From contig CAZUMH010000001.1 in assembly GCA_964621645.1 (NCBI GenBank), forward strand, positions 26,977-90,976: a DNA stretch of 64,000 bases, in the 5' to 3' direction. How positions within the stretch are numbered: the stretch's first letter is position 1; every line of letters starts with the position of its first letter. The notes beneath the pieces were generated by a model that searched no databases, was not told the origin of the DNA, and was given only the letters and a program-made list of their open reading frames with translations. The DNA is from an uncultured bacterium (lineage in GTDB: Bacteria; Zhuqueibacterota; QNDG01; JAGLOF01). The translations under genes and the position numbers were made by a program. Positions 1-32,170 of this stretch are shown here, piece after piece.

Positions 1-138
1 ACGCGGGGAAAGCGATCATACCGCAGTCTCCTTCGGGTGACCGACAGCGGATACAGCTCGATGATTTTATCCGTACCGTAAAAAATTACGTGAAGGACAA
101 ATAGCCGGCGAACTTTGTAAGAAAAAGCGAGGTGCATC

Positions 139-3100
139 ATGATGCTTTCCCATAGTAAATCGAAAAGGGCCCGTGCGATGTTTTTCCTGACCATCACGGG
201 CTTTATATGTATAATCCTGACGGGACAGGCTTTCGCGCAGAATCAGGCGGCCATGTTTGACGGCAATCTGACGGTGAATAATGGCAGCCGAATCCGCATA
301 ACTGACAGCCAGCCCATAGATCCGGGCTCTGCGAATCCTGCTGTATATCAGATCTCGGGGGACCATATTACGGTTGAGGCCTGGGTGTATCCTTTTTCGG
401 CAGACGGACCGTTATATAGCATCGTCCGGCGGCCCGCGGTCTATCCCGATCCGGATCCCCCTTATACTTATTCGCTTCATATGAACGCAGGCGTTCCCTA
501 TTTTGGGATTTCGGACGGGTCCGCGGGCAGTGCCATGGAGACGGATTACTCAGAGACAATTCCCGCCTTTGCATGGACCCACCTGGCCGGAACCTATGAC
601 GGCAGTTATCTCCGGCTGTACGTCAACGGCATTGAAAGAAGCAGTGTATTTATTGAGACGGATATTGGGTCCGGCAGCACAGGGCTTTATATCGGACGCC
701 TGGTCGGACGGGCCTTCGCGGGGCTCATCGATGAGGTGCGTCTCTGGAATATTACCCGGGATCAGGTTGATATTCAGAATGATATGTCTGTTGAGCTCAC
801 GGGAACTGAGACCGGTCTGGCTGGATACTGGAAATTCAATGGAATTGAAGAAATCAACGGCTTTCAGGCGGCCCGAGATTATACGTCAAACAACAATCAC
901 CTCATTGTGCAGTATAACACACCCTTCGTGACTTTCAATCCCATCGACCATCATGATGTGGATGCGGCGATCACCGCCCACACGCCCTCGATCGATTTTG
1001 GCACCATCGAACAGGCGTATGAATGGAAAACCCGAACCATTGACATCACCAATGGTAGTGAGAATCCGCTGGTTGGCATTATGTGGGGCAACATCAGCGC
1101 CAATACCGAAGGAACAGCTGTTATGTATGTACCTCCCTATGGGACCGAGAGCTTCGATATTTCCCTTCGTACAAAGGATGCGGGATCCCTAAGTGGCGAT
1201 ATCGCCATAGATTATAACGGGGGCTCGGAAACGGTATCCGCAACCATAGAGTCCGTCCCCGTCCTGCGCTTTGACGTGAATCAAATTGGATTATGGACCT
1301 CGCGTACCGGTATTGCCGGGTATGATCCTTTTACCGCATCTGCAGGTCTGGAATGGCCGATCGGCAGCGGTAAAACGGCGCTCTACTCAATGGGGATACG
1401 GATAGGGGCTCTCGTTGGAAATGAAATCCGCATCGCAGCCGTCAATTACAACGGCTCTGAGTTCAGCCCCGGTCCTATCATCAACGGAACGCCTGCGGAT
1501 CCGGAGGATCCGATATACCGCATGTACAAAACCGGCGGTCCCGGAGACGGAGACTGGGATGTCTGGCCTCTGGATCAGGGTGCTCCGGCATCTTTTTGGG
1601 GTTCGCCCAAATTGCTGGGAGACCAGACCCTCTTTTCCGTGTATAACGATATGGATCCGGGCAAGCATACGGTTTTTAACACGGCGCCACTGGGTGTCGA
1701 AGTGCAACAGACCGTATACGGCTATGGATCGGGTTCCACCGCGCTGGAAAATACCGTGTTCTTCGTCTACAAAATAATCAACAAGGGTAGCCATACCTGG
1801 GAAAACGCCTATATCTCGGTCTGGGCCGATCCGGACCTCGGTTACTACATGGACGACTTCGCGGGCGTGGATGTAAGCCGCGGCCTTGGATATCTTTATA
1901 ACGCTGACAATTTTGATGACCCCAATGACAGCAATCCTGGCTACGGCACACCCCCGCCGGCTCTGGGCATCGACATGCTGCGCGGAGCGTTTCTCTCAAC
2001 GCCTATCCAGGCATTCACCTATCATACTGGAATAGGCGGTTCAGCTCCCCTTGACGATCCTCAAAACGCCCAGGAGGCCTACAATTACATGCAGGGTCTG
2101 AAGTCGGACGGTTCACCCTTCATGGATGGTGGAACCCCAACGACATTTCCCCTGAGCGGTGATCCGGTAACCGGTACCGGCTGGGTGGATGCGGGAGAAG
2201 CGGACCGGCGCATTATGCTTTCCACCGGTCCCATTACACTGAAGCCGGGGGAATCCAGGCAGGTCATCGCCGCCCTGATAATGGCTGCAGGCAGCGATAA
2301 CATAGACAGCATCACGGAATTACGTAACGCCTCCGATGCCGTACAGCTCCTCTTTGATCCAATTGTGGTTACTTCCGCTGCTGACGCAGGTAACGGCACC
2401 TTCCGTGCGGCTCTCGAAGAGGCCAATGCCAGGCCCGGGATCGATTACATCCATTTTAATATTTCCGGTACTGGAGTGCATACCCTTCAGCCGGCCACTC
2501 CCTATCCTGTTGTCATGGATGCGGTGATTATTGATGGCAAGACTCAGGCTGGCTACAGCGGAACACCATTGATAGAGATCGATGGCTCCGGGGTGACAGG
2601 TACTGATCAGCGTGGTCTGGTCATCATTGCCGGGAATTCCACTGTCAGGGGACTTGCTATCAACCGGTTCGGACAGGCAGGCATTGTGCTTCAGGATAAC
2701 GGCGGTAATACCATTCAGGGCAACTTCATTGGGACAGATGCTGCAGGAGGAACAGCACTGGGTAATGGAGGATTCGCACTTGCAGTCGGTTGCTCCTCCA
2801 ATCTCATCGGTGGTTCCGCGCCAGGCGAGGGCAACCTTATCTCCGGGAATGGTTACGATGGTATTTTTATGAGTGATCCCGGCGGAGATGACAATCAGGT
2901 GCTGGGGAACATTATCGGCTTGGATCTTGATGGCCAGGCGGCTCTTGGAAACGGGCAGTGCGGCGTTCAAATATCAAACAACTGCGTCAATAATATTATC
3001 GGGCCCGACAACATTATTTCCGGGAATGTATCAGCAGGTGTTTGTATCGCAGGCGCCGCCGCGGCCAATAATACGGTGTTGAATAATAAAATCGGTACGG

Positions 3101-6100
3101 ACATCAGTGGTAGTCTTGCCATCGGGAACCTGCAGGGGGTTAATATACAAGCTCCTAATAACATTGTCAGTGCAAATCTAATCTCAGGGAATACAAGCGA
3201 TGGAATTACCCTGCATAATTCAGATGCTCACAACAATACCATCAAGGGCAACATAATCGGTCTGAATGCCGCAGGTGACGCAACACTCGCCAACACCTCT
3301 GTCGGGATCAATATCACAGGTCATCACAATACGGTTGGAGGGAGTACAACGGCTGATAGGAACATCATTTCAGGGAATATTCAGAATGGAATCTGTATCG
3401 AACTCGGAGCAACAGAAAACAACATACTGGGCAACTATATCGGTACAGACATCACGGGGACCAAAGCGGTTCCGAATGATCAGTCGGGCATTCAAATACG
3501 GCTCGCGGCAAACAACCATATCGGCGGCAAGAATGCGGGAGAGGGCAATCTGATCTCCGGCAATGATAAGCATGGGATCTATATTTATGGTACCGGTGTC
3601 ACTTTATCTCACAGCAATACCGTGCAGGGTAATTACATCGGAACTGACAAAACAGGATTGAAGTCACTCCCCAACACCGGCAGCGGCATCCACTACGCAA
3701 CGTACACATGGGGCAACCTGATCGGCGGCCTGGAACCCGGAAGTGGAAATCTCATTGCCTTTAACAATGGAGCTGGTGTTTCTTTTGGAGGAGGGGGTTT
3801 GGCCAGTCCACCTTACAGGAATGCCATATTCTCCAACTCAATATACGCCAATGTCGGTCTTGGGATCGACCTGAATTTCGGTTTGGATGGCACACCTTAC
3901 GGTGAAACACCCAATGATCCAGGCGATGCCGATTTCGGTACCAATGAACTCCAAAATTTCCCGGTATTATCTTCAGTGGAATTCACCACAGATGCTGCCA
4001 TTATTAACGGTTCTCTCAACAGCGCAGCCAACACCGACTATACCATTCAGTGCTTTGCCTGTAAAACGGCACACGAATCAGGCTACGGTGACGGTGAGAC
4101 TTTGCTGGGGACTGAGACGGTGACCACTGATGGATCCGGGAATGTTTCATTTACCTTCACCTTCCCGATTTCGGCTTCAGCCGGCCAGGTCATTTCCATG
4201 ACTGCCACGGATCCTTCAGGCAACACATCGGAATTCTCAGAGGTTAGCGGCGGCGCGGCTTCTCAGCTACTGGATCTGTCAGCAATGACATTTACCATTA
4301 ACAGCCAGGGTGACCCGACGATCGGGGACGGCAGTGATATCACCGCTGTTGAGGCCGCGTTTGCGACATGGAATGCTGTGTCTGAATGCACAGTGAACTT
4401 CAGTACAGTTACCTCTCCAGATTATTCAATTGCCGACGCGAATGACGGTATTAACCTTGTTACCTTCACGGATAACGAATTCCTCTTCGCGCCAGGCGTG
4501 CTGGCAGTGGCCGCCAAGACAATTCGCATGGATGCGGCCGGACTGCCCGCGGAAATCATCGATGCGGATATCGTATATAATCCTTACTGGACCACGCACT
4601 ACAAATACAACTTCAAGACGGATACCGATCCGGGCTACTTCGACATCCAGAGTGTCACCACCCATGAAATCGGCCACGTGCTGGGCCTTGTACACAGCGG
4701 CGTAGAGACCGCCACCATGTTTTTCATGATCGGCTCCGACATCAATGCCAGGACTCTGGAAACCGATGATATGGCCTGGGTACGTTCCAAATATCCGGAA
4801 ACAGGCACCTATTCAGCTACCTATGGCTCGCTTACGGGGAGAATCGAGGATGGTTACTCGTCGGGTACCGGCATAGCGGGCGCGCTGGTCTATGCCATCA
4901 GCGAGGCCACCGGTGATTCGGTACACACATACTCGGATGCCAATGGTGACTTTACCATTCCAGGCCTGCTTCCCGGCAACTATACAGTTTTTGTGGAACC
5001 ACTGGATGGTGATGTATGCGGCTTCGCACTGCGTCCGGCGCATATCAGCGCCTATATCTACGCGATCACCAAGATAACCGACTTCCCGGAGGAATACTAC
5101 AGCGGCACTTCTGAGGGCGTCTCTGAAGTGGAAGATATCGCGGCTATCGTCACGGTATCGGCCGGAGGACCCGCCGGCCCGATCACCATTCTCACGAATC
5201 GGGATGTGACGCCGCCGGTCGTGCTGTCTGTTTCACCGGGCTCCGGCAGCACCGATATAGCCGTCACATCCCAGATACTCGCCGGTTTTTCAGAACCCGT
5301 GGATGCGGCGACCATCAGTGCTTCCACCTGTTTCCTGTCCGTCGGCCCAAATCCTGTGAACTGCCAAATGGACTATACCATGATGGACAACGACAAGAAA
5401 GTGCTGCTGACACCGGGCATACTGCTTCAGCATGAGACTGATTACACCCTCCACATCACCTCCGGTGTAACGGACCTTCACGGGAACGGGCTGAGTTCTG
5501 AATATACCTCGACATTTACGACCATTCCAGCTGATATCGAAGCTCCTTCGGTGACCGGTGTGGTACCGGCTGACGGCGCGGGTTCCATTTTCCCGACAGC
5601 AAATATTACTGTTATCTTTTCCGAACCCGTTGACGCTTCCACCCTGGAAGCCGGATTCACCCTCAGCACGGCGAACATTTCCGATGTGCCGGCTTCTTTT
5701 ACTCTGAATCAGTCCGGATCGACCGTGACTTTTGATCCGGTCAACAGCCTGATGGAAGGGACGACCTATACCGTCACACTAACTGCTGACATCACGGATC
5801 TGTCTGGTAATCCACTGTCATCCGCTCCTTACTCCTCAAGTTTCACGACTGTGGCACAAGCGGCGCCCCTTCTCGAATACATCGGACCCAACCCTGGCCA
5901 GGACAATGTCAGCGTCACGACCACAGTGCTCACGGAGTTTTCCGAACCGATCAATCCTGCGACGGTAAATCCCTCCTCATTTATCCTGCGTCAAGGCAGC
6001 ACGCAGATTGCTGGCAATTTCGAATTCCTGAACAACAACGCCGGTGTGGTTTTCAGGCCGTTTGAGGATCTCGATTTTGGACTGACATATACGATCGAAC

Positions 6101-8040
6101 TCACGTCCGCGATTCAGGACGCCTCATCACCCCCGGAAGCATTCGCGGGCCATATCAGCACCTTCACCACGGCGGTTGAGGCACAGACGCCTGTAATCGC
6201 GTATGTCAATCCTTCGCAAGGTGCGGAGGGGACAGCGGTCGTTATTTCCGGTGAGGGATTCGATCCGGATCCGGCAAACAACGTCGTTTCATTCAACGGC
6301 ATAACAGCGGCGGTTACTGACGCAACCTTAACCAGTCTGGCCGCTTCCGTCCCCATTTCCGCCGTCACCGGACCGCTCGAAGTCACGGTTAACGGCAGTA
6401 CCAGCAACGCCTATTCATTTACTGTCCTTCAGCCTTCAGGATTTCCTGACGAATATGATACAATCAATGTGCCTGGTGAGCTGGACAATCAGGACGTTGA
6501 ATTTTCACCGGACGGCGCTTATGCGTATGTCACCAATACAGGGGCAAACTCTATCAGTGTTATTGATGTGGCGAATGGTGATTTTATCGGACAACCTGTA
6601 TCTGTCGGCGGAAGCCCGGTCAAAATCACGGTAAGCCCGGATGGTAAAAAAGCGTATGTCACCAACTTTGCCTCGCATACCATCTCCGTGTTGAATACGG
6701 CGGTTCCGGCTGATGTTACGGTTGAAACGACAATTCCCGTGGGGATCAATCCGGCCGGTATAGCAATTTCACCGGACGGGAAACGCGTCTATGTCGGCAA
6801 CTATACTTCCCGCAACATTTCCATCATCGATGTGGATGAGAACAGCGGCGGGTATAACCATGTCATCGCCAACGTGGACACCGATTCCGAAAACCGGGAT
6901 GTGGAGTTCGGCCCTGACGGACTTCGGGTGTTAATCACCGGTATGGGTATCATTGTACTCGATACCAATCCGTCTAGTGATACATACAATCAGGTCATTG
7001 CCAATGTGGAGCCGGACACCGAAACACGGGATGTTGATTTCAGTCCCGACGGCATGCTCGCGGTTGTCTCAACCATGGCCGGGAATATACTGCTCATCGA
7101 CATGATGGAAAATACCGCATCACCTTATCAGGTCATTGCCAATATCCATCCCGAGCAGGAGGCCCATGATGTTGAATTCGGACCCGATGGATCACACATT
7201 TATACTACAAATTATTATTATAATCAGCTATCCATCTATGAGCTGACGTATGGCGGTGATACTGGAGGTTCCGGAAGCAGCTATCCCTATATCGCTTCCA
7301 TGCAGTTACTCCAGACAATCGATGTTGGCGGCGCGCCTATGGGGCTTGCGATCGACAGCGGTGGCGAACGTATCATCGTGGCCAATTCAGGATCAGGTGG
7401 TGTTACGATAATCGATCTGTTCGGTACGCCTGAAAGCAATATCAAACATACCCTCAGCACAATTCACCAAATACAGGTGGATGGTTTCATCAACAGCGGC
7501 CAGGCCAACGCCCTCACCAACAAGCTGAACAACGCCTTGGATAAGCTCGCAAAGGGCAAAACGAAAACCGCTATCAATATTCTGGAATCCTTCTGCAATC
7601 AGGTTCAGGCTCTTATTAATGATGGGATAATTCCCGCGGGCATCGGTGAAGACCTAATGAACCGGGTCAAGGATATCATCGTCAGCCTGGTCAGCGGCAG
7701 TTCAGCCAGTCCTGAAGAAGAAAACCTCATGCTTACAGAACAGATGCCTAAGACCTTTTCGCTCGAACAGAACTATCCCAATCCGTTTAATTCGTCTACA
7801 ACTATCGCCTATACCATCCCGGCGGTGTCGGCGAAAACCGTAGATGTTCGACTGATACTCTATAATATTCTGGGGGAACCGGTGCGCACTCTGGTCAGCG
7901 AACAAAAATATCCCGGATTTTACGAAGTGGTCTGGGATGGACGGGACGATGCGAACAGAGATGTCCCCTCAGGCATCTATATTTATCGGGTCAAGGCGGG
8001 CGATTTCACGCAACTCCGGAAGATGATTTTGATTAAATGA
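139..8040 (+). CDS. Giant secreted multidomain T9SS cargo protein (LamG-like, parallel beta-helix repeats, metzincin Zn-protease, CarboxypepD_reg-like, Ig-like/Big, IPT/TIG, YVTN beta-propeller, FIMAH, T9SS C-terminal sorting domain)
   Basis: 2633-aa ORF with RBS GAGGTG 5 nt upstream and an N-terminal signal peptide (FFLTITGFICIILTGQAFAQ). LamG signature LYVNG...IDEVRLWN. About 500 aa of NxISGN/NxIGxD beta-helix repeats. HEIGHVLGLVH (nt 4663-4695), an HExxHxxGxxH metzincin motif. SbsA-Ig-like and IPT segments. Repeated YVTN / SPDGKxxYV propeller units. FIMAH-like helix (ALTNKLNNALDKLAKGKTKTAINIL). C-terminal QNYPNPFN...YNILGEPV...SGIYIYRVKAG...KMILIK is a T9SS CTD. Confidence 0.85.
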   Translation: MMLSHSKSKRARAMFFLTITGFICIILTGQAFAQNQAAMFDGNLTVNNGSRIRITDSQPIDPGSANPAVYQISGDHITVEAWVYPFSADGPLYSIVRRPAVYPDPDPPYTYSLHMNAGVPYFGISDGSAGSAMETDYSETIPAFAWTHLAGTYDGSYLRLYVNGIERSSVFIETDIGSGSTGLYIGRLVGRAFAGLIDEVRLWNITRDQVDIQNDMSVELTGTETGLAGYWKFNGIEEINGFQAARDYTSNNNHLIVQYNTPFVTFNPIDHHDVDAAITAHTPSIDFGTIEQAYEWKTRTIDITNGSENPLVGIMWGNISANTEGTAVMYVPPYGTESFDISLRTKDAGSLSGDIAIDYNGGSETVSATIESVPVLRFDVNQIGLWTSRTGIAGYDPFTASAGLEWPIGSGKTALYSMGIRIGALVGNEIRIAAVNYNGSEFSPGPIINGTPADPEDPIYRMYKTGGPGDGDWDVWPLDQGAPASFWGSPKLLGDQTLFSVYNDMDPGKHTVFNTAPLGVEVQQTVYGYGSGSTALENTVFFVYKIINKGSHTWENAYISVWADPDLGYYMDDFAGVDVSRGLGYLYNADNFDDPNDSNPGYGTPPPALGIDMLRGAFLSTPIQAFTYHTGIGGSAPLDDPQNAQEAYNYMQGLKSDGSPFMDGGTPTTFPLSGDPVTGTGWVDAGEADRRIMLSTGPITLKPGESRQVIAALIMAAGSDNIDSITELRNASDAVQLLFDPIVVTSAADAGNGTFRAALEEANARPGIDYIHFNISGTGVHTLQPATPYPVVMDAVIIDGKTQAGYSGTPLIEIDGSGVTGTDQRGLVIIAGNSTVRGLAINRFGQAGIVLQDNGGNTIQGNFIGTDAAGGTALGNGGFALAVGCSSNLIGGSAPGEGNLISGNGYDGIFMSDPGGDDNQVLGNIIGLDLDGQAALGNGQCGVQISNNCVNNIIGPDNIISGNVSAGVCIAGAAAANNTVLNNKIGTDISGSLAIGNLQGVNIQAPNNIVSANLISGNTSDGITLHNSDAHNNTIKGNIIGLNAAGDATLANTSVGINITGHHNTVGGSTTADRNIISGNIQNGICIELGATENNILGNYIGTDITGTKAVPNDQSGIQIRLAANNHIGGKNAGEGNLISGNDKHGIYIYGTGVTLSHSNTVQGNYIGTDKTGLKSLPNTGSGIHYATYTWGNLIGGLEPGSGNLIAFNNGAGVSFGGGGLASPPYRNAIFSNSIYANVGLGIDLNFGLDGTPYGETPNDPGDADFGTNELQNFPVLSSVEFTTDAAIINGSLNSAANTDYTIQCFACKTAHESGYGDGETLLGTETVTTDGSGNVSFTFTFPISASAGQVISMTATDPSGNTSEFSEVSGGAASQLLDLSAMTFTINSQGDPTIGDGSDITAVEAAFATWNAVSECTVNFSTVTSPDYSIADANDGINLVTFTDNEFLFAPGVLAVAAKTIRMDAAGLPAEIIDADIVYNPYWTTHYKYNFKTDTDPGYFDIQSVTTHEIGHVLGLVHSGVETATMFFMIGSDINARTLETDDMAWVRSKYPETGTYSATYGSLTGRIEDGYSSGTGIAGALVYAISEATGDSVHTYSDANGDFTIPGLLPGNYTVFVEPLDGDVCGFALRPAHISAYIYAITKITDFPEEYYSGTSEGVSEVEDIAAIVTVSAGGPAGPITILTNRDVTPPVVLSVSPGSGSTDIAVTSQILAGFSEPVDAATISASTCFLSVGPNPVNCQMDYTMMDNDKKVLLTPGILLQHETDYTLHITSGVTDLHGNGLSSEYTSTFTTIPADIEAPSVTGVVPADGAGSIFPTANITVIFSEPVDASTLEAGFTLSTANISDVPASFTLNQSGSTVTFDPVNSLMEGTTYTVTLTADITDLSGNPLSSAPYSSSFTTVAQAAPLLEYIGPNPGQDNVSVTTTVLTEFSEPINPATVNPSSFILRQGSTQIAGNFEFLNNNAGVVFRPFEDLDFGLTYTIELTSAIQDASSPPEAFAGHISTFTTAVEAQTPVIAYVNPSQGAEGTAVVISGEGFDPDPANNVVSFNGITAAVTDATLTSLAASVPISAVTGPLEVTVNGSTSNAYSFTVLQPSGFPDEYDTINVPGELDNQDVEFSPDGAYAYVTNTGANSISVIDVANGDFIGQPVSVGGSPVKITVSPDGKKAYVTNFASHTISVLNTAVPADVTVETTIPVGINPAGIAISPDGKRVYVGNYTSRNISIIDVDENSGGYNHVIANVDTDSENRDVEFGPDGLRVLITGMGIIVLDTNPSSDTYNQVIANVEPDTETRDVDFSPDGMLAVVSTMAGNILLIDMMENTASPYQVIANIHPEQEAHDVEFGPDGSHIYTTNYYYNQLSIYELTYGGDTGGSGSSYPYIASMQLLQTIDVGGAPMGLAIDSGGERIIVANSGSGGVTIIDLFGTPESNIKHTLSTIHQIQVDGFINSGQANALTNKLNNALDKLAKGKTKTAINILESFCNQVQALINDGIIPAGIGEDLMNRVKDIIVSLVSGSSASPEEENLMLTEQMPKTFSLEQNYPNPFNSSTTIAYTIPAVSAKTVDVRLILYNILGEPVRTLVSEQKYPGFYEVVWDGRDDANRDVPSGIYIYRVKAGDFTQLRKMILIK

Positions 8041-8098: not shown

Positions 8099-8130
8099 GA
8101 AAGAAGGCGGGCTCACGCCCGCCTTCTTTC
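8099..8130. terminator. Bidirectional rho-independent terminator between convergent genes (14-bp perfect stem GAAAGAAGGCGGGC / GCCCGCCTTCTTTC, loop TCAC)
   Basis: Perfect inverted repeat read directly from the sequence. It lies between the stop of the giant + gene (8040) and the stop of the - strand kinase (8148). Confidence 0.6.
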
Positions 8131-8147: not shown

Positions 8148-9809
8148 TTACCTGAGCCGTCGCATCTGTTGCACGGCTTCTGTTTTCCGCCCGGGATCGG
8201 TCTCAAGATCTGCCACCCGCTGCCAGCAGAAAAGAGCGGAGTCCGCAAAACCCGCTTTTTCGAACGCTTCCGCCGTCAGACGCAGGGTTTCCGTCTGGTC
8301 CGGCATTTCGGCATTGGATTTCTTCAGCCACCCAATTGCCTTTGTCGTCTCACCGTGTTTCAAATACGCTTCACCGAGATGACGCTGGATGATAGCGTTT
8401 AGCCGGGTGTCAGGGGTTCGTTCGATCGCATGTTCCAATATGGGAATAGCTTCATCAGTCCGCCCCAGCTCGATGAGAACATTCCCCAGTGCGCTGTATG
8501 CCAGGGTTAGATCCGGATCATGGGAAACGGCCTTACGATACGCTCTGACGGCTTCATCGTAGCGACGTTGATTCTCAAGCGCATATCCAAGATTGTAATA
8601 AGCCGGTGCGTAGGTGCTGTCCAACGCAATTGCCTTCTGTATACAGGTAAATGCCGAGTCCGGTTTGCCGGTGTTGATGTATACGGTGCCCAGCAGATTC
8701 CAAATCCTGACCAGGCCGGGATCGAAAGCCAGTGCCTTTCTCAGCGCTGAGACGGCTTCAACCGGTCTGTTCGCCGAGATATGGGACCGGCCCTGTTCAA
8801 CATACTGACGGGCAAGACGTTTCTTCCCGGCCTGCTGTGAAAAGGGTCCCCATAAAAACAGATATACTATCGCGGCAGCAAGGATAATGCAGCCGGGAAC
8901 AAGAAAGCGGGCCGTCTTTTTCAAATCTATCCGCTGAGGAAGTCCCGATCTGATGGTCTTTCCCTTTTCAAGGGACTTTATGGCCTGTCCGCTGGATTCT
9001 CCCTTTATTATTCGTTTGATTTCACTGACAATTTCGCCGGCATTGGCAAAACGATTTTCTTTATCCTTGGCCATGGCTTTCAGGATCAGGGCCTCGAAGG
9101 CCGGATCAATATCAGGATTGATTTCGCTGGGAGGGTCTGGCTGTTCATTGACAATGGCGTACATGACAGCCAGTTGATGGTCCGCATAGAAGGGAAGCCG
9201 GCCTGTCATCATCTGATAGCAAATGACACCGAATGAGTAGAGATCACTGCGATGATCCACCTCCCCCCCTTGCGCCTGTTCCGGAGGCATAAAAGCCGCA
9301 GTTCCAAGCGTCATACCCGAACGTGTATACTGCGAACCCATGGACAGCTTGGCAATCCCAAAATCCATAACCCGGACACGACCACGCTTATCAACCATAA
9401 TGTTAGCGGCTTTTAAATCACGATGAATGATCCCCTTTTCATGGGCGGCACTCAACGCCTCAGCGATTTGCAGGGCAATATCCAGGACCTTATCTGCGGG
9501 CATTGCCTTATCCTCGATAAGATCCTGAAGGTCACATCCTTCAATATATTCCATGACGATGCATGGGTGTCCGTCTGACTCACAGAAGTCAAAAATTGTA
9601 CAGATATTCGTATGATTCAACGTTGCGAGAATTTTTGCTTCCCGGGCCAGTCTATCCTTCAACTCATCCTGCAGTGGTGCCGCTGATGTCACAAATTTGA
9701 GGCCGACGATTCGGTCAAGCACGGTATCCTGAGCTTTGTAAACACTGCCCATTCCGCCTTCACCAAGTTTTTCAAGGATTGTATAGTGAGAAATAGTCCT
9801 GCCGATCAT
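8148..9809 (-). CDS. Hanks-type serine/threonine protein kinase with one TM segment and C-terminal TPR repeats
   Basis: Gly loop LGEGGMGSVYKA, VGLK lysine, catalytic HRDLKAANIMV, DFG...APE activation segment (DFGIAKL...AFMPPE). TM helix (FLVPGCIILAAAIVYLFLW) followed by several TPR units (AYYNLGYALENQRRYDEAVRAYRKAV...). Confidence 0.9.
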   Translation of the reverse strand: MIGRTISHYTILEKLGEGGMGSVYKAQDTVLDRIVGLKFVTSAAPLQDELKDRLAREAKILATLNHTNICTIFDFCESDGHPCIVMEYIEGCDLQDLIEDKAMPADKVLDIALQIAEALSAAHEKGIIHRDLKAANIMVDKRGRVRVMDFGIAKLSMGSQYTRSGMTLGTAAFMPPEQAQGGEVDHRSDLYSFGVICYQMMTGRLPFYADHQLAVMYAIVNEQPDPPSEINPDIDPAFEALILKAMAKDKENRFANAGEIVSEIKRIIKGESSGQAIKSLEKGKTIRSGLPQRIDLKKTARFLVPGCIILAAAIVYLFLWGPFSQQAGKKRLARQYVEQGRSHISANRPVEAVSALRKALAFDPGLVRIWNLLGTVYINTGKPDSAFTCIQKAIALDSTYAPAYYNLGYALENQRRYDEAVRAYRKAVSHDPDLTLAYSALGNVLIELGRTDEAIPILEHAIERTPDTRLNAIIQRHLGEAYLKHGETTKAIGWLKKSNAEMPDQTETLRLTAEAFEKAGFADSALFCWQRVADLETDPGRKTEAVQQMRRLR

Positions 9810-10044
9810 TGTTCATCACCTCCGGATCCCTGAAAAAGAAAAACAGAAGAAGATAAGAAGGTAAGGGAGAACTGTTATTAATAAATTATACTTGATTATA
9901 AGGAAAGAAGCAAGGGAAATCTTCTCCTTACAGCGAAGCGGAATATTGTGAGGAGCGTATCAAGAGGCAAAGTGCCGGCCCAATAAATACGTGAATGGTA
10001 TGTAACGTCAGTATTAAGGCCGCTTCGTCACCGGGCGCATCATT

Positions 10045-10878
10045 TCAATCGCGAGCCACCGGCTGATAGACAATTACCACCTGCTTTTCCCCGCAATCGG
10101 GACAGGTGCGGGCCTTGCCTGCTTCCACATTGCCCCCAATGGCTACTCCTCCCCGGAATGCATCGGCGGCGGAAAGACCGAAAATAAACGATCCCGGATA
10201 TAGCTTGCTACACCCGGCGCAGAACAGTCGGCAGGGGCCGTCCGCGGCGCTGACAAAGAAAGGATTGAATCCACCGCCTCCCGGATTCGGTACGCTGTTC
10301 AGCAGGCTCCCGTATATATCACCGAACTCATCCAGACTCAGTGACAGTCCGACCGGTATATTTCTTCCCTGAACAATTCTGGAAAACATCGCCTCATCAT
10401 CGATTATCGGCACTTTCATATCCAGAACGGCCATCATCTCAGCTGATTTCAGCAACCTGTTTTCCGTGTCGGTCAGCGACTGCCGTCTTTTCTCAGCAAC
10501 TTTGAGCACGGAAGGATCCTCTTCGTTCTCGATAATCTCCCCTAAGACGCCATCATCTGCAGTTTTTTCAATCGCGGCGATCTGGACAGTGGTATTTCCC
10601 TGGAAAGCTGTTCTGGCCAGCCTGTTTATATACCCCGGATCGGTGATATGATCGAGCGCGGCGATGCGCACATCTGTCTCCTTGTCAAATGATGCATGGC
10701 TGAAAAGAGCGCGCTGATTAGTCATTCTTGCTACCGCCGCTTTCCGCACATCCGCATTGTTATCGCTACATGCAATTTTTTCCAGAATCTCCTGATCGTC
10801 GACGCGGTCGATTTCAGCGATACGCACTGCGGGATCCGAGTGCTGCCATTTTGGTTTGAATAAGTTGGAGATTGGCAT
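10045..10878 (-). CDS. HEAT-repeat (PBS-lyase-like) protein with C-terminal Cys-rich (CxxC...CxxC) tail
   Basis: Repeated DPAVRIAEI / DVRKAAVARM / DVRIAALDHI units typical of HEAT_2/PBS-lyase repeats. C-terminal CAGCSKL...CPDCGEK resembles a zinc ribbon. Same strand as, and upstream of, the kinase. Confidence 0.55.
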   Translation of the reverse strand: MPISNLFKPKWQHSDPAVRIAEIDRVDDQEILEKIACSDNNADVRKAAVARMTNQRALFSHASFDKETDVRIAALDHITDPGYINRLARTAFQGNTTVQIAAIEKTADDGVLGEIIENEEDPSVLKVAEKRRQSLTDTENRLLKSAEMMAVLDMKVPIIDDEAMFSRIVQGRNIPVGLSLSLDEFGDIYGSLLNSVPNPGGGGFNPFFVSAADGPCRLFCAGCSKLYPGSFIFGLSAADAFRGGVAIGGNVEAGKARTCPDCGEKQVVIVYQPVARD

Positions 10879-19599: not shown

Positions 19600-20498
19600 C
19601 GGGATATGATACAAAATCAAACTGACACCAGCCTGAATAAATAATACTTGCGAATGAAAAAATCGGGATGCTTTGAACAAATGCCCTGAAAAGATGTCTC
19701 ATACCATGGGAAAGCTCATCTGCTGGTTGAGTGGGGACGGGTTCTCCGGCATTAGGAAAATCGCCGCCCGGACAGGGGAAACAAGGGATCGCCCGTCCCG
19801 ATTATTCAATACTATTCTTAAAAAAAATATCGGAAATGACCGAGTGACCATGTCAGGCGATTTTTCTGAAGCCGAGGGTTGTCTTTGACTGTACCATAAA
19901 GAATCATTTACAGAAACGTTGTTGCCAAAAAGAAATATACCTCATTTCGGGCCTGATTTCGGCCCGAAGGCGCGGCTGCCGCTTTATATACCGTAAAACA
20001 CCCGCATCCGAAAAGGGGCCGGCGTAAAAATGAAAACAGTTGGCGGCCCGTCTCATTTTCGGGCCGCCGTATAGAGAGAAAAGCAGCGTCCGGGGGCCGG
20101 GATGGGGCATGGAGACTCGAAGAATGGGAACGCACCTGTGAAAAGCTATTCAGCCGCGCCAGGGGTTTTTGGTCCTTTTTGCCCCGTCAAAAAAGATATC
20201 TCATCCTAAAGGGAGACTTCTGATACAGTCCGATTAACTAAATTGAAATGTAAGAATCCCTTAAATTGTTAACCATGTACTTGGACTGTCCCAATTCAAT
20301 ACAGAGTATTATTGAGAGATTCCGGATTGGTTTCACCGATAATCATAACAACGTACACTACAAAATGAAAAATTAATCGCTGTGCCCGGTATCTGAAAAT
20401 TGCCGGGCGTTTTTTCAACATTTCTTGTAAAATATGGGTATCATATAGTGAAAGCGCTGCGGGGAAAGCGGTCAGGCTGGACAAACCGGAAAGAACAG

Positions 20499-21107
20499 AT
20501 GGTGACAAAGAGTGGTGACATTGAAAAAAGTATTCTTACCTCAGCACAGAAGGGCGACGGGGCAGCCTTTGAAAAGATCGTGCTCCATTATCAGCATCGG
20601 GTGCTAGCGCTGGCCTGCAACATCGCGGGAAATCCCGTGGACGCGTGGGATATTGCCCAGGAAGTATTCATCAGACTCTACCGCTACCTGCCGGGCTTTC
20701 GCTTTCAAAACAGGTTCTATACCTGGCTCTACCGCATTGTGGTCAACACCAGCTACGACTGGCTCAAACAAAAACAGCGCTTTCGTACCGTCACACTCGA
20801 CAGCATCAAAGAAACCGGACAGCCGGAGACGGTGCACCGGACATTGGATTGTTTTGACCTGCAGGAGAAAATAATGGAAGGACTGGACCGGATGAATCAC
20901 CTCCATAAAACCGCTTTTATACTGAAAGAAGTGGAAGGTCTTTCCTGCAAAGAGATCGCCAACGTCATGGAGTGTCCGCCCGGTACGGTACGCAGTCACC
21001 TCTTTCACGCCAGAAAAGGCCTGCAGGCTCACCTGCGGATCAACTATCCTGAACTGGCCCAGATGTCTAAAAAGAAGGATAAAAACGATGCGATGCTCAT
21101 GGACTAA
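20499..21107 (+). CDS. RNA polymerase ECF-type sigma-70 factor (sigma-24 family)
   Basis: Region 2 (HYQHRVLALACNIAGNPVDAWDIAQEVFIRLYR) and region 4 HTH (LDRMNHLHKTAFILKEVEGLSCKEIANVMECPPGTVRSHLFHARKGL). The track ORF starts at an upstream TTG; the ATG at 20499 gives a ~200-aa product. Confidence 0.85.
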   Translation: MVTKSGDIEKSILTSAQKGDGAAFEKIVLHYQHRVLALACNIAGNPVDAWDIAQEVFIRLYRYLPGFRFQNRFYTWLYRIVVNTSYDWLKQKQRFRTVTLDSIKETGQPETVHRTLDCFDLQEKIMEGLDRMNHLHKTAFILKEVEGLSCKEIANVMECPPGTVRSHLFHARKGLQAHLRINYPELAQMSKKKDKNDAMLMD

Positions 21108-21606: not shown

Positions 21607-22584
21607 ATGAAAAAGCACATCATTGTAATTACACTGCTGGCCCTGCTGCTGACTGCGGCGGCCGGCATGACCCAGGTCCCCAATCACGGCACGGTAAGCG
21701 GCACCGTTATCGATGAGGATTCAGGAAAGCCGATTGAGAATGTACTGGTAAAGTATCATTACACCGGCAGCGATAAAGCGGAGATGGGGACAATGACCGA
21801 CGCCAAGGGGGAATTCACTGCCAAGATGATCGAGCCAAACCAGATCGTGATCTTCCTTTTCAGTAAAAAGGAGTATCAGCAGGAGTATCGAGAACTGGTG
21901 GTGGAAAAATTCGAATCCAAGGAACTTTCCATCTCACTGAAAAAAATCACCCCTTCCTTAAATTATGCCCCTGAAGCCCGGACCTTTCAAATAAAGTACC
22001 GCGACGCTCAGGATATCCTGGAAATTATCAAGCCCTTTCTCAGTGATGCCACTGGCCATGATAAGGTCTCGATGTCTCCTTCCCTGCAGACAATAACGGT
22101 CTACGCCAATCAGGAGAAACTGGCCAAAATCGCCAAGACCATTGCCACCTACGATGTCCCCCCGAAGCAGATCTGGGTGGAAGTAATGCTGGTCAAGGCC
22201 AGCGGCAACGGCGGCGGCAAGGCGAAAATTCCGGCGGAATTGAATAATCTGGCGAAACAGCTGGAATCCGTCTTCAAATTCACCACTTTTGAAATCATCG
22301 GCAGAACGACCGCCACAGGGGTGGAGGGAGCGAACATCCAGACCTCCTCAAATATGGATAAAGTCAACCTGCTTCCCAGCTTTCAGATACGGGGCGGCCT
22401 CAATCTCAGCGGTGATGTCATCAGGCTGGATCATTTCCAGGTCCAAGTTGTCAGGCCCATCCGCAGCGAGATCGCCACTACGGTCAACATTCCCGACGGC
22501 GGCAAGATGATTCTGGGAGCCTCCAACGATAACGCTCTGGAAGGCTCGCTGATCACGGTGGTGTCCGCCAGAGTAATGAAATAA
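21607..22584 (+). CDS. Secreted CarboxypepD_reg-domain + Secretin_N-domain protein with short secretin-like C-terminal beta region (mini-secretin-like)
   Basis: AAGGAG RBS and signal peptide. GTVSGTVIDEDSGKPIENVLV...DAKGEF is a carboxypeptidase-regulatory-like beta-sandwich. ARTFQIKYRDAQDILEIIKPFL...ITVYANQEKLAKIAKTIATYDVPPKQIWVEVMLV matches the GspD/PilQ secretin N-domain pattern. C-terminal TTVNIPDGGKMILGAS...LITVVSARV resembles the end of a secretin domain. At 325 aa it is far shorter than canonical secretins. Confidence 0.6.
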   Translation: MKKHIIVITLLALLLTAAAGMTQVPNHGTVSGTVIDEDSGKPIENVLVKYHYTGSDKAEMGTMTDAKGEFTAKMIEPNQIVIFLFSKKEYQQEYRELVVEKFESKELSISLKKITPSLNYAPEARTFQIKYRDAQDILEIIKPFLSDATGHDKVSMSPSLQTITVYANQEKLAKIAKTIATYDVPPKQIWVEVMLVKASGNGGGKAKIPAELNNLAKQLESVFKFTTFEIIGRTTATGVEGANIQTSSNMDKVNLLPSFQIRGGLNLSGDVIRLDHFQVQVVRPIRSEIATTVNIPDGGKMILGASNDNALEGSLITVVSARVMK

Positions 22585-22824: not shown

Positions 22825-24720
22825 TTGAAGGTTCGCTCCCTCCCTTATCGGGCTGCCCTGATCCTGATGCTCCTCTCGGCACACTTCTGCCGGGCAGGGC
22901 ATGAAGTCAGCACCCTCCTCAAACTGGATTATTCGGCAGCAGCTGATATCCGCATCCGCAGCAGCAGCGACGGCAATGCCGGTATCGTCGCGTTCAGCGT
23001 TCTGGATGAGGCCCGGGTCGCCCTGCTCTGTATTACCACCGACTGCATTACTATCCACCGCATCCCAGATGGTCTGCTGCTGCAGACAATTCCCCTACTC
23101 AGCCACCCCAGGGATTTCATCTGGAACGGCAGCCGGTTTTTTGTCCGCTTCAGCGACAGGGTTCTGACAATGGACGCTGAAGGCGGTCAGCGGACCGAGA
23201 TACCCCTCAATCCCTCAATCAGGTTCATCTCCCGGCTGAAATGGCGGAATGGAACACTTTATGCCCTCACCGTGGATGGATACTCCTATCCGCTTTCCCG
23301 GAACGGACAGCCGCTGGAGACGGGCAGTCAAATCAGAGAGCGGATACGCGGGTGGGCATTGGATAATGGAATATCGGCATTTCCGGTCATTACCGCTGAA
23401 TTCAGCGGCGAAATCAGAGTCTACACCGGCCCGGACAGCACCTTTATCCCCGTCTCCTCCAGTACACCTCTTGGCTGCATGCGGATCATCGGCACAGCCG
23501 ACAGCTCCCTCTACCTGGAAATCCAGACTATCCTGCAGCAGGTCCCCTTGCGAGTCAGCCGTACGGTTGCCCGTCTCTCGATGAGTGGTGGACGGATCAT
23601 CGACACCTTCGAACCGCCCCGCAGTACTTTTTTCCCCATGACCGCTGATCTTATCATAAGGGAAAACACGCTCTATCACGCGCTCACAACACCGGAATCG
23701 ATCATTTTTTACCGGCTTCGCCAGGACTCCCGCCTCCGGAAGACAATTTTTCCTGCACCGCCGGAGGAGTACCATTATAATGATCATCTGCCGGAATGGG
23801 ACAGGATGAGCGTACCAAGTGAAGCTGTGCCGGGGCCGGCGGTACTCGATCCCATCAGCAGAAGTGCAATCATGGAGAATGCCGACAAGTATGTCCAGGT
23901 CGAATGGATATGCGGAGAGAAGAATACGAGCAACAATGAAGTGATCTCCCTTCCGGACGGTGCCCTTATTCAAACGCCTGCCTGGGTGACGGTCGGCCCC
24001 AAGAAGCGGACTCCCTACAAATGGGGAGGATTCACCCATGTCGATATATTCAGGGAACGAATCGAAGCGGAATGCTATGCAGGAGACGTCTACGGCGACA
24101 GGAATGATCCCCAGACCGTCAGTCCCGGAGACGCCTACTGCGTCGGTGTCGACTGCAGCGGATTCGTCTCCCGCGCCTGGAACCAGCCGGTGAAACACTG
24201 GACCGGATCACTCCCGGAAATCTCGGAACCTCTGGAGAGCTGGTCCGAGGTGCGGCCCGGAGACATAGCGGATAAAGTCGCGGGACATGTGATGCTGATC
24301 GTGGACAGGAGCAATTCCGGGGTTTTCAGTGTTGTGCACTCCAACGGGACTACCGAAAATGTGTGCTATCAGATAAAGACACTGTACGATCTCAGCGGAT
24401 ATGTACCCATGAAATACGCGGCGGTCATCGAAGACGGGTGGGAGCCCGAAACGGCGGAATGGACGGCCCTGTATCAGAATTTCCCTAATCCGATTCGCTC
24501 TGCCACCCAGATGCCATTCTACCTTACCTATGAATCGGACGTGACCATCAGCGTGTATAACCTTCTCGGACAGGAAGTCGCCGTTCCCTGCAGCGGACAT
24601 TTCAGCGAAGGCGCACACAGCATCGGCTGGGATCCCGGTGAACTGCCGTCGGGGATCTATTTCTACCGTTTGAAGACCGACTGGGACGTATTCATGAAAA
24701 AATGCATCGTCGTCGAATGA
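22825..24720 (+). CDS. T9SS-sorted secreted protein with NlpC/P60 (CHAP-like) cysteine peptidase domain
   Basis: TTG start with GGAAAGGA RBS and signal peptide. Cys/His pair in YCVGVDCSGFVSRAW ... GDIADKVAGHVMLIV (nt ~24130-24310) fits NlpC/P60 cell-wall hydrolases. C-terminal YQNFPNPIRSAT...VYNLLGQEV...SGIYFYRLK is a T9SS CTD. Confidence 0.75.
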   Translation: MKVRSLPYRAALILMLLSAHFCRAGHEVSTLLKLDYSAAADIRIRSSSDGNAGIVAFSVLDEARVALLCITTDCITIHRIPDGLLLQTIPLLSHPRDFIWNGSRFFVRFSDRVLTMDAEGGQRTEIPLNPSIRFISRLKWRNGTLYALTVDGYSYPLSRNGQPLETGSQIRERIRGWALDNGISAFPVITAEFSGEIRVYTGPDSTFIPVSSSTPLGCMRIIGTADSSLYLEIQTILQQVPLRVSRTVARLSMSGGRIIDTFEPPRSTFFPMTADLIIRENTLYHALTTPESIIFYRLRQDSRLRKTIFPAPPEEYHYNDHLPEWDRMSVPSEAVPGPAVLDPISRSAIMENADKYVQVEWICGEKNTSNNEVISLPDGALIQTPAWVTVGPKKRTPYKWGGFTHVDIFRERIEAECYAGDVYGDRNDPQTVSPGDAYCVGVDCSGFVSRAWNQPVKHWTGSLPEISEPLESWSEVRPGDIADKVAGHVMLIVDRSNSGVFSVVHSNGTTENVCYQIKTLYDLSGYVPMKYAAVIEDGWEPETAEWTALYQNFPNPIRSATQMPFYLTYESDVTISVYNLLGQEVAVPCSGHFSEGAHSIGWDPGELPSGIYFYRLKTDWDVFMKKCIVVE

Positions 24721-27258: not shown

Positions 27259-27513
27259 ACAGTGATTCCTCATGCTTTAAATTGGCTTCTGGAAATTATT
27301 GGTGTCCGGTTACGAATAAACCGGCTGGCATATAGTCATAATACGGAAAAGTAGAGAATGAGTTTCTTGATTCCTCCTGCAAGAAATTGAGCTTTGTCTT
27401 CCGGAATCCTTAAGCTTTCAGAGCAAGAAAAATTCATCCATGACAGCATAATAAAACCCCCGACAATAAATGCCGGGGATTTTAAGTACTCTCTCACCTG
27501 CTTCAGCATGTAG

Positions 27514-30619: not shown

Positions 30620-32170
30620 TCAGGGCAAAGCGGCCTTCCACCCCGCGTGCAGCTGTACTGCCAGTTCGTCCACCAGTATTTTCATTTCAGGATGGGAGGC
30701 CAGGTTCTCATTTTCCTGGTCGTCGGACTGGTGATCGTAAAGCTCCACCCCCACCAGCTTCCGGCTATCCCGCTCCAGCCATTCCACATAGCGATAGCGG
30801 TCCGTCCTGATGGCGTAGCCGATATATTCCTTGCCGTCGGGGCCCACCCAGATCCCTTCCCGCAGGAACTCGCTGAAGGCTGCGGTCTTCCAGCTTCGGT
30901 TTGGATCTTTCAGAAGCGGCTTCATACTCAGACCCTCCAGATCTCCGGGAACAGGCAGGCGGCAGAGCTGGCAGAGGGTGGGATAGATGTCCACGAACTC
31001 CACCAGGGCATCGGAGCGCTGTCCCGGCCGGCCCACACCAGGCGCCGCTAATATCAGAGGGGCGTTGGTGTCGATCTCATAGTTGGTCATCTTGCACCAG
31101 CTGTTATGCTCGCCCAGCTTCCAGCCGTGATCGCCCCACAGCACTACGATGGTATTATCAGCCAGTCCCACTTCATCCAGCGTGTCCAGCAGCCGGCCAA
31201 CCTGGGCGTCGGTGTAGCTCACCGAGGCCAGGTAACCGTGACGCAGCAGCCGGGCCTCATCATCGTTCAGGTGATCCTCGAGCGGCGTGCCGTGCTTGGA
31301 GAAATCGGTATAACCCCGCAGTTCCCGCAGGTTGTTGATGGCCATGGTCGGTGCTTCCTTGGGCAGGAAATCGTTCTCCGCCAGCGGGATGCTGCCGCGG
31401 TCGTAGAGATCCCAATACTTCCTGGGCGCGTTGAAGGGCAGATGGGGCCGGTAGTACCCCACGGCCAGGAAAAAGGGCTGCTTCTGATTTTTGAGCTGTT
31501 TCAGCTTTTCCACGGCCCAGTCGGTTTGGGCTCCGTCATAATAGGTATTGTCCGGTACATCAGGAGCCTCGGTGGCCTGGGCCTTGAGATAGTAGTAGCC
31601 GAAGCGGTCCTTACGGCTCTCCCCCCGCCCGGCGGCGATGATCCGTTTCTTGCGCGCCTCCTGGATGGCCCGGCCCTCCGCGCCCAGATAGACGGCATCC
31701 GGGTCGAAGGGAAAACCCTTCAGATAGGCTCGCTCGTCCCAGGATGGTTCATCTGGATAGATATTGTGAAAGATCTTGCCGATGCTGGCAGTATAATACC
31801 CATGCTGCCGGAAATACTGCGGCAGGGTGATCACATCGGGCGACACCTGACGCAGGTCGGTATGCAGATCGAGGACACCGATGGTGTCGGGCCGCTTGCC
31901 CGTGAGCAGGCTGGCCCGGGAAGGATTGCACACGGCCGACTGGCAGTAGGCCCGGGTGAAAACCGCCCCCTGGCCCGCCAGACGATCGATGTTTGGACTG
32001 ATGACGTAGTCCTTACCGTAGCAGCCCAGTTCGGTGCGCAGATCATCCACGGGGATAAAGAGCACGTTGGGCCGCCGTCCCGGTTTCAGAGTGGTGCAGC
32101 CCGTCAGAGCGGCAGCGGCCAGGGCCGCGGCGCTCTTCCCTATAAATGCGCGGCGATTAATGGTATTCAC
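30620..32170 (-). CDS. Sulfatase (Cys-type, formylglycine-dependent; iduronate-2-sulfatase-like), Tat signal
   Basis: Twin-arginine signal RRAFIGKSAAALAAAAL. Sulfatase signature CNPSRASLLTG (C-x-P-x-R) with metal ligands in PNVLFIPVDDL. Size and motifs match the family S1 sulfatases. Confidence 0.9.
   Translation of the reverse strand: MNTINRRAFIGKSAAALAAAALTGCTTLKPGRRPNVLFIPVDDLRTELGCYGKDYVISPNIDRLAGQGAVFTRAYCQSAVCNPSRASLLTGKRPDTIGVLDLHTDLRQVSPDVITLPQYFRQHGYYTASIGKIFHNIYPDEPSWDERAYLKGFPFDPDAVYLGAEGRAIQEARKKRIIAAGRGESRKDRFGYYYLKAQATEAPDVPDNTYYDGAQTDWAVEKLKQLKNQKQPFFLAVGYYRPHLPFNAPRKYWDLYDRGSIPLAENDFLPKEAPTMAINNLRELRGYTDFSKHGTPLEDHLNDDEARLLRHGYLASVSYTDAQVGRLLDTLDEVGLADNTIVVLWGDHGWKLGEHNSWCKMTNYEIDTNAPLILAAPGVGRPGQRSDALVEFVDIYPTLCQLCRLPVPGDLEGLSMKPLLKDPNRSWKTAAFSEFLREGIWVGPDGKEYIGYAIRTDRYRYVEWLERDSRKLVGVELYDHQSDDQENENLASHPEMKILVDELAVQLHAGWKAALP

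Follow-up and report, generated by a model that had tools for sequence, protein, structure and literature searches.

A giant mosaic protein of an uncultured Zhuqueibacterota bacterium that combines a matrixin-like protease domain with lectin, beta-supersandwich, beta-helix and propeller modules

The stretch of DNA analyzed here (the window) comprises 64,000 nucleotides (nt) from an uncultured bacterium of the GTDB lineage Zhuqueibacterota (NCBI GenBank assembly GCA_964621645.1, contig CAZUMH010000001.1, positions 26,977 to 90,976 of the forward strand), and near its beginning it carries a giant gene for a modular protein that is likely a type IX secretion system (T9SS) cargo. In the list of open reading frames (ORFs) and its translation this gene is a single ATG-started ORF of 2633 codons plus stop (139..8040, forward strand), exactly as placed in a first-pass annotation made from the letters alone. 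A Shine-Dalgarno-like GAGG motif lies a few bases 5' of the gene, the GC fraction stays between 0.485 and 0.557 along its length without a compositional break, and an open frame of this size is far beyond chance; reverse-strand ORFs inside it (e.g., 2320-2970, 216 amino acids, aa) were treated as shadow ORFs. The gene is real and encodes a 2633-residue protein of probably secreted or surface type, and an identical protein (P0001) is present in NCBI on a 101,586-bp contig. The whole protein and nine in-frame segments were scanned, and modules were scored against the curated Pfam/NCBIfam cut-offs, giving the following map in which all features are on the forward strand:

139..237 (+), aa 1-33: Sec-type signal peptide, MMLSHSKSKRARAMFFLTITGFICIILTGQAFA/Q, assigned by eye (KSKRAR n-region, 17-residue hydrophobic core, AFA/Q)
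355..843 (+), aa 73-235: LamG/concanavalin-A-like lectin domain (PF13385 Laminin_G_3, E 6e-22, 78.8 bits; match over aa 73-213 at 75-79 bits, cut-off 27.6)
844..1266 (+), aa 236-376: beta-rich linker, possibly immunoglobulin (Ig)-like, without family match
1267..2358 (+), aa 377-740: galactose-mutarotase-like beta-supersandwich without family model; Asp-rich signature W562-x-D564-x-D566-x-G568...D573...D578
2359..3843 (+), aa 741-1235: right-handed parallel beta-helix (PF13229, 48.6 bits; PF05048, 35.9 bits)
3844..4248 (+), aa 1236-1370: Asp-rich loop and Ig-like cap closing the beta-helix cassette, which accompany the beta-helix in homologues
4285..4794 (+), aa 1383-1552: Peptidase M10 (matrixin-like) catalytic domain (PF00413)
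4663..4695 (+), aa 1509-1519: zinc-binding motif HEIGHVLGLVH (H1509, E1510, H1513, H1519), followed by Ser1520
4717..4719 (+): Met-turn methionine M1527 (ATMFF), aligned to the karilysin Met in HSNVSSALMY
4795..5202 (+), aa 1553-1688: CarboxypepD_reg beta-sandwich and conserved EPLDG segment (PF13620, 47.7 bits; match over aa 1564-1620 at 41.8-47.7 bits, cut-off 32.3)
5203..6171 (+), aa 1689-2011: three Big_5 bacterial Ig-like domains (PF13205, E 1e-55, three stretches; 187-191 bits, cut-off 23.6)
6172..6426 (+), aa 2012-2096: IPT/TIG domain (PF01833, 26.9 bits; match over aa 2018-2095 at 23.6-26.9 bits, cut-off 20.9)
6466..7434 (+), aa 2110-2432: seven-bladed YVTN beta-propeller (TIGR02276, 79.7 bits, cut-off 27.85)
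7456..7680 (+), aa 2440-2514: FIMAH helical module (PF22888, 32 bits; match over aa 2442-2514 at 27.1-32.0 bits, cut-off 24.8)
7774..8037 (+), aa 2546-2633: T9SS type A C-terminal sorting domain (TIGR04183 over aa 2546-2630, 27.3 bits, cut-off 23; FlgD_ig, 34 bits)

The first-pass annotation had listed a LamG-like lectin, a beta-helix, a metzincin site, a carboxypeptidase-regulatory-like domain, Ig-like/IPT domains, a YVTN propeller, a FIMAH module and a Por sorting domain, in this order. Each of these passes a threshold of a hidden Markov model (HMM), and their order and the reading of the protein as a cargo fit the structural and homology results. However, the list passed over some 500 aa between LamG and the beta-helix, the supersandwich included. 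This segment (aa 260-780) matches no Pfam family at E<=1, no NCBIfam model at E<=0.1 and no PDB profile outside the C-terminal sorting domain (CTD), and LamG is therefore not directly joined to the beta-helix. The Beta_helix/NosD match proper covers aa ~790-1100 (48.6 bits, cut-off 25.9) inside a repeat region of ~490 aa, and the Ig-like cap between beta-helix and protease (aa ~1270-1370) gives a weak Big_6 match below the cut-off (24 bits) and a weak match to Bap (7dm0, E 0.007). All seven YVTN blades are legible in the sequence (aa 2124, 2167, 2212, 2259, 2303, 2349 and 2407). For the FIMAH module the literature search returned only papers on fimA-H fimbriae and the sequence search no solved relative; our guess is that it serves as a spacer.

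Three further proteins align with the giant protein from end to end, its N-terminus included: P0002 (2653 aa, 63% identity, from a JGI assembly), P0003 (2730 aa, 44%, from an ENA assembly) and P0004 (2617 aa, 41%, on a 119-kb JGI contig). These nearest full-length relatives are uncharacterized metagenomic proteins automatically named 'YVTN family beta-propeller protein'. Conservation is unevenly distributed along the chain. The M10 domain (78, 60 and 51% identity to P0002, P0003 and P0004, respectively) and the supersandwich (63, 55 and 53%) are among the best-conserved modules, the propeller reaches 80, 47 and 46%, and FIMAH (61, 21 and 36%) and the linker aa 236-376 (37, 34 and 32%) are conserved least. 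The first-pass annotation knew of no characterized protein with this domain order, and that holds: outside the window protein the order was found only in these three unstudied orthologues. A contig scan seeded with two LamG motifs brought up LamG proteins of all sorts and kept 80 loci, none of which resembles a colinear full-length orthologue, although this is weak evidence for rarity because the seeding came from LamG motifs only.

The catalytic motif HEIGHVLGLVH lies precisely where the first-pass annotation had read it (nt 4663-4695), and the surrounding segment is a significant match to Peptidase M10 (PF00413, 50.6 bits for the segment alone and 43.0 bits when the full chain is scanned, cut-off 24; E 2.5e-13; profile positions 7-158 of 159 covered). 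Its best sequence matches in the PDB are karilysin (2XS4, E 1.4e-4) and the matrix metalloproteinase (MMP) MMP-12. In the karilysin alignment HEIGHVLGLVHSGVETATMF is paired with HEIGHLLGIEHSNVSSALMY, which brings into register the third His, the Ser after it and the Met of the Met-turn; M1527 lies eight residues past the third His H1519, and H1519-S1520 align column for column with karilysin HSNVSSALM. A Ser directly after the third zinc-binding His is the residue typical of matrixins among the metzincins. In an alignment of 33 relatives H1509, E1510, G1512, H1513, G1516 and H1519 are invariant and M1527, D1543 and D1544 are conserved in at least 90%, while the HExxHxxGxxH motif and a TMF[FY] turn are retained in all four orthologues. 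The AlphaFold2 model of aa 1375-1700, with a confidence score (pLDDT) of 76-95 over the catalytic domain and poor values at aa 1622-1667 and in the tail, matches the catalytic domains, folded from a five-stranded sheet and three helices, of MMP-3, -9, -11, -12 and -13 and karilysin with a Foldseek probability of 1.00 and a template modeling (TM) score of 0.62-0.75 on the target. The third His and the Met-turn Met thus align with those of karilysin and MMP-12 and are conserved among the relatives, and within the reach of the tools none of the refuting observations named in the first-pass annotation turned up. The domain belongs to family M10 but lies outside the canonical MMP subtype. A partial match to NCBIfam NF041905 (E 6e-14) scores 51.7 bits, far under the equivalog cut-off of 250, and the protein is therefore not a member of the MXAN_2677/2678 family of myxosortase-dependent metalloproteases.

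The overlooked segment holds the sole component of the protein that is truly undescribed at the family level. A homology search with aa 260-780 returned 47 proteins at E<=1e-5, and BLASTP mapping delimited a conserved core of 365 aa (aa ~377-740). This module is a galactose-mutarotase-like beta-supersandwich: its fold matches members that consist solely of such a supersandwich, at an identity of only 6-14%. Many of its relatives contain nothing but a signal peptide, the module and a T9SS tail (490-600 aa). Ignavibacteria and Melioribacteraceae have some that bear no label other than 'T9SS type A sorting domain-containing protein'; further ones go under 'hypothetical protein' (Latescibacteria, Zixibacteria) or 'T9SS C-terminal target domain-containing protein' (Flavobacteriales). 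A phmmer search of 1.84 billion cluster representatives gave 6,615 relatives at E<=1e-3, 5,013 at E<=1e-10 and 1,308 at E<=1e-30, a family of at least 6,615 clusters when grouped at 50% identity; in most of these relatives the module directly follows the signal peptide. Across 184 diverse members (31-62% identity) a signature rich in Asp, Asn and Trp is conserved (N503, D504, E521, N548, W562, D564, D566, G568, D573, D578, Y587, N588, D593, D675, W682, D684, D689 and R691), and its WxDxDxG...DD...D part is probably a Ca2+ site. The nearest described beta-supersandwiches are the N-terminal domains of GH15 glucoamylase and glucodextranase (1LF6, 1ULV), dextran dextrinase (9JU0) and GH94/GH65 phosphorylases, together with the aldose-1-epimerases, all at 6-14% identity and unrelated at the sequence level. 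The supersandwich of the window type has no (alpha/alpha)6 catalytic domain joined to it; it stands alone with a T9SS tail or behind LamG and has its own Asp-rich signature. A question about a GH174 fold was a lead without outcome.

Several relatives of this module deserve mention for their context. On a 350,670-bp contig (JGI 3300037781; L086:111-11644) at least seven complete genes and one cut gene follow each other in tandem on the same strand with 4-nt overlaps, each encoding a signal peptide, a supersandwich and a T9SS tail (520-559 aa; 44-63% mutual identity, 29-34% identity to window aa ~405-736), which looks like the diversification of paralogues of a surface binding protein. In P0126, P0129 and P0139 the supersandwich is combined with a dockerin (PF00404) in place of the T9SS tail, and the module is therefore used with more than one surface-attachment system. 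A gene for a staphylococcal-nuclease-like protein (SNase, PF00565) adjoins stand-alone supersandwich-CTD genes in two unrelated genomes (L080-L082:4960-5979 and L083:7703-8371); a general association was rejected, since the gene is present in two of five contexts and missing in L084, L086 and L088.

Mapping of further BLASTP hits divides the giant protein into cassettes that recur elsewhere. Cassette A (aa ~35-740; LamG, linker and supersandwich) is found as one block at 41-45% identity in P0006-P0012, where it lies internally and is followed by a T9SS tail; P0010 is labelled Marinimicrobia/Neomarinimicrobiota and P0012 sits on a Kryptoniota contig, and in P0006 and P0009 FIMAH co-occurs with the CTD. 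Cassette B (aa ~740-1367; beta-helix and Ig cap) forms tandem repeats in the giant proteins P0005, P0014-P0016, P0018, P0020, P0037 and P0044, a repetition that suggests a structural rod. Cassette C (aa 1383-1797) joins M10, CarboxypepD_reg and Big_5, and cassette D (aa ~1900-2430) Big_5, TIG and the propeller. M10 with CarboxypepD_reg is also commonly found on its own, in proteins of 300-560 aa, and relatives with M10 only measure ~210 aa. The uncharacterized 'Matrixin + CarboxypepD_reg' proteins P0169-P0190 share the M10-CarboxypepD_reg-EPLDG cassette at 27-49% identity and, like the NF041905 family, are 300-560 aa long and lack lectin, beta-helix and propeller. Among the short M10-only entries, P0172, P0173, P0174 and P0169 start with the end of an Ig cap (...ATATDxxGNTSEFS...). 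Probably these entries derive from larger beta-helix-Ig-M10 proteins, as fragments or through split gene calls, in which case the junction of cassettes B and C is itself recurrent. The architecture as a whole, although without a characterized match, is accordingly less unique than the first-pass annotation implied, because it is joined from cassettes that recur elsewhere.

Cassettes C and D each occur twice in the Latescibacteria protein NIO29561.1 (P0121/P0013, 3403-3574 aa, 'beta-propeller fold lactonase family protein'), which thus shares the M10-CarboxypepD_reg-Big_5 and Big_5-TIG-YVTN propeller arrangements with the window protein (27-31% identity over the body cassettes) and ends with a T9SS CTD that is 53% identical. 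It differs in the duplication of both cassettes and in lacking the LamG/supersandwich/beta-helix half. In P0013 the first M10 copy (aa 639-807) has a dead motif, THSAGHIAAIANS, with Glu changed to Ser, Gly to Ala and the third His to Asn, and the second (aa 1097-1258) is intact (HEAGHLFGLSHS...SMFF), a tandem that by its motifs reads as a protease/pseudoprotease pair.

The closest characterized protein is karilysin (Kly) of Tannerella forsythia (2XS3, 2XS4, 4R3V), in which a bacterial M10/matrixin-like domain likewise belongs to a protein secreted in a T9SS-dependent manner, with HEIGHxLGxxHS and the Met-turn in register, a structural match of TM ~0.62-0.70 and ~21-23% identity. Karilysin has an N-terminal signal peptide and a C-terminal CTD and is small, with a 14-residue propeptide, a catalytic domain on the N-terminal side and a C-terminal extension that ends in an atypical KLIKK CTD (PMC4404884). 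In contrast, the catalytic domain of the window protein starts only at residue 1383 of 2633, has no recognizable propeptide and lacks the canonical MMP ligands of the structural zinc, its CTD is of type A, and it carries binding and stalk modules amounting to an extra ~2,400 aa. The gingipains RgpA and Kgp of Porphyromonas gingivalis resemble it as large proteins that combine a protease with adhesin/Ig-like domains; they are T9SS cargo anchored to anionic lipopolysaccharide (A-LPS) after PorU has cleaved the CTD (PMC5445135), but they are cysteine proteases and lack LamG, supersandwich, beta-helix and propeller. Cytophagalysin CPL1 of Cytophaga, a metzincin of 137 kDa, carries eight Ig-like domains (PMC11674741); it belongs to the pappalysin family, has an N-terminal prosegment and catalytic domain, and is equally devoid of these four modules. 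With cytophagalysin and the gingipains, large proteins made of a protease and Ig-like or adhesin domains are already a known kind in this bacterial group. The best solved relative of aa 2110-2432 is the archaeal surface-layer (S-layer) protein propeller 1L0Q (E 9e-48) of Methanosarcina mazei, which has a PKD partner domain. It shares the seven YVTN blades and the nature of an extracellular structural protein, and differs in its partner domains and in having no protease; the propeller of the window protein is a structural surface module, not an enzyme.

Taken together, the protein is likely a T9SS cargo, secreted or displayed at the surface, in which binding modules accompany an active M10 endopeptidase. 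The N-terminal signal peptide would direct its export by the Sec pathway, after which the T9SS would recognize the type A sorting domain and move the folded protein across the outer membrane. The sorting domain would then be removed, leaving the protein either free or covalently tethered to the surface of the cell through its new C-terminus; a mechanism for CTD cleavage and surface anchoring is known from the T9SS of P. gingivalis (PMC5445135). In the tethered form, with the C-terminus at the cell, FIMAH and the S-layer-like YVTN propeller would lie innermost, followed by a TIG/Big_5 stalk that would hold the protease and its CarboxypepD_reg partner off the cell, by the rigid beta-helix rod of ~490 aa and, as the distal head, by the LamG lectin and the probably calcium-dependent beta-supersandwich. 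This head would bind glycans on particles, cell walls or glycoproteins, and the matrixin would cleave protein nearby. The first-pass annotation had pictured a protein built for polymer or cell-surface attack, a role that such an arrangement may serve. On the side of secretion, the CTD shares 35-52% identity with those of numerous proteins annotated by NCBI as T9SS type A sorting domain proteins, and three more CTD-bearing genes lie within the same 64 kb, in indirect support of T9SS machinery in this genome.

Several observations weigh against this picture. Animal MMPs have a second, structural zinc site made of three His and one Asp in the S-loop region, and latency in this group is conferred by propeptides, which carry the cysteine switch PRCGxPD in MMPs and are short with an Asp switch in karilysin. 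The catalytic domain of the window protein (aa 1383-1552) contains four His in total, of which only one (His 1487) is non-catalytic, so that a His3-Asp structural zinc site cannot form; its stability and regulation therefore differ from those of characterized matrixins. Neither a propeptide nor another latency element was recognized, and no PRCGxPD cysteine switch lies upstream of M10. The Ig-like cap that precedes the catalytic domain holds the closest cysteines on the upstream side (1305 and 1308), and the stretch between 1308 and 1417 is free of Cys; a latency segment of an unrecognized type could nevertheless exist. As to the sorting domain, which the first-pass annotation had named Por, it stands above the TIGR04183 cut-off, but the Pfam model Por_Secre_tail (PF18962) reaches only 18.3-22.2 bits and remains below its gathering score of 27. 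Moreover, no gene of the T9SS machinery is found among the annotated ORFs of the 64-kb window, and anchoring through A-LPS is documented only in Bacteroidota (PMC5445135).

Among other explanations, the least improbable is that of a polyprotein which would be cut at the surface, whether autocatalytically through M10 or by a different protease, leaving a lectin/supersandwich/beta-helix adhesin and a protease-stalk piece that stay associated or act independently, as in RgpA and Kgp. The cassettes do occur separately in other proteins, conservation is lowest in the linkers between them, karilysin and other KLIKK proteases autoprocess (PMC4404884), and RgpA and Kgp fragment into catalytic and adhesin domains (PMC5445135). 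However, cleavage sites are not predictable, and the colinear order kept at 41-63% identity fits a single-chain function equally well. We regard such processing as possible though the less probable course; it refines a surface protease with binding modules and is compatible with it.

Another possibility is a bifunctional enzyme, in which the supersandwich or the beta-helix, if not both, would act on polysaccharides as a new lyase or hydrolase family and glycan and protein would be attacked in one substrate. We consider this unlikely; if the supersandwich were catalytic, it would found a new family of carbohydrate-active enzymes. A similarly doubtful proposal, which we put forward tentatively, concerns cassette A as a whole. 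LamG and the Asp-rich supersandwich (aa ~35-740) may constitute an undefined module that recognizes or cleaves glycans and is very widespread among the T9SS cargo of the Fibrobacterota-Chlorobiota-Bacteroidota (FCB) group, fused here to a propeptide-less, single-zinc matrixin as a glycan-guided surface protease. Such an enzyme would be a functional analogue of glycoprotein-specific proteases assembled from different parts.

Slightly more doubtful still is a mainly structural role as a surface-layer or adhesin protein, in which the M10 domain would serve self-maturation only or act as a binding module without external substrate. It draws on the likeness of the propeller to that of an archaeal S-layer protein, on the Ig-like, beta-helix and propeller scaffold that makes up the bulk of the mass, and on the Latescibacteria relative, whose dead M10 copy (HSAGHIAAIAN) beside a live one indicates that the fold can be retained without catalysis. 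Against it, neither the window protein nor any of its three orthologues has lost a catalytic residue or the Met-turn, and few modules are as well conserved as M10. Finally, an assembly or gene-calling artefact that fuses unrelated genes into a chimeric ORF, which a very long and modular protein on a metagenome-assembled contig might bring to mind and which the first-pass annotation had itself raised, is highly improbable and for practical purposes ruled out, because three colinear orthologues come from independent assemblies (two JGI, one ENA), in addition to which the flanking genes are conserved and the composition shows no break.

If the preferred reading of a surface-displayed protease with binding modules is correct, uncultured bacteria of the FCB group build very large surface enzymes from ready-made cassettes (lectin head, rod, protease, stalk and sorting tail), which bears on the degradation of particles and glycoproteins by such bacteria; the genomes of the relatives carry the source labels Marinimicrobia, Latescibacteria or Ignavibacteria. 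Current understanding is not overturned by this, as these lineages commonly have T9SS cargo of giant, mosaic build and the present protein is a fairly ordinary example. The more useful by-product is the supersandwich, a large, well-folded T9SS-associated family without a Pfam or NCBIfam model that could be defined. A minimal matrixin without structural zinc or recognizable propeptide is in turn of some interest for the evolution and latency of metzincins.

The remaining features of the window that touch on the giant gene, on T9SS cargo or on glycans are the following:

3..104 (+): last part of a small ORF, conserved upstream of the giant gene and truncated by the window edge; its end (...IQLDDFIRTVKNYVKDK, then stop) resembles that of the 148-aa ORF directly upstream of P0004
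8148..9809 (-): Ser/Thr protein kinase gene in convergent orientation, TPR repeats included (Pkinase E 3.5e-54; TPR)
22825-24720 (+): T9SS-tailed protein of 631 aa with no other recognizable domain
25099-27273 (-): CBM9-like/DUF5916 protein
30620-32170 (-): sulfatase
34050-35237 (-): DUF4185 protein
35378-36526 (-): T9SS-tailed esterase of 382 aa (Abhydrolase_2/Esterase_PHB)
39084-41750 (-): GH3 protein with PA14 insert
42327-43286 (-): SASA-type carbohydrate esterase
57076-62472 (-): second giant T9SS cargo, 1798 aa with eight GEVED domains (PF20009, E 5e-106) and Por_Secre_tail (35.9 bits)

A kinase-TPR neighbor is also present beside P0004 and P0002 (37% identity over the full length), and at both loci an ORF of 148-156 aa without family lies directly upstream of the giant gene, with a TPR-CHAT protein further upstream (neighborhood coordinates at an orthologue locus: L079:26-953 and 8908-10533). 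A functional link of these conserved neighbors to the giant gene, for example in its regulation, is possible. Between the convergent giant and kinase genes a perfect 12-bp GC-rich inverted repeat, AAGAAGGCGGGC tcac GCCCGCCTTCTT, occupies positions 8101-8128; it is flanked by a T-tract on neither side and went uncalled in the terminator scan, whose only hit downstream of the giant gene is a weak site inside the coding region (7959-7978). The CBM9-like, sulfatase, DUF4185, GH3 and SASA esterase genes form a loose cluster that suggests a lifestyle of degrading sulfated or acetylated polysaccharides, consistent with polymer degradation more generally. The T9SS-tailed gene at 22825-24720 lies downstream of genes for an extracytoplasmic function (ECF)-type sigma factor (20400-21107) and a CarboxypepD_reg/Secretin_N protein (21607-22584).

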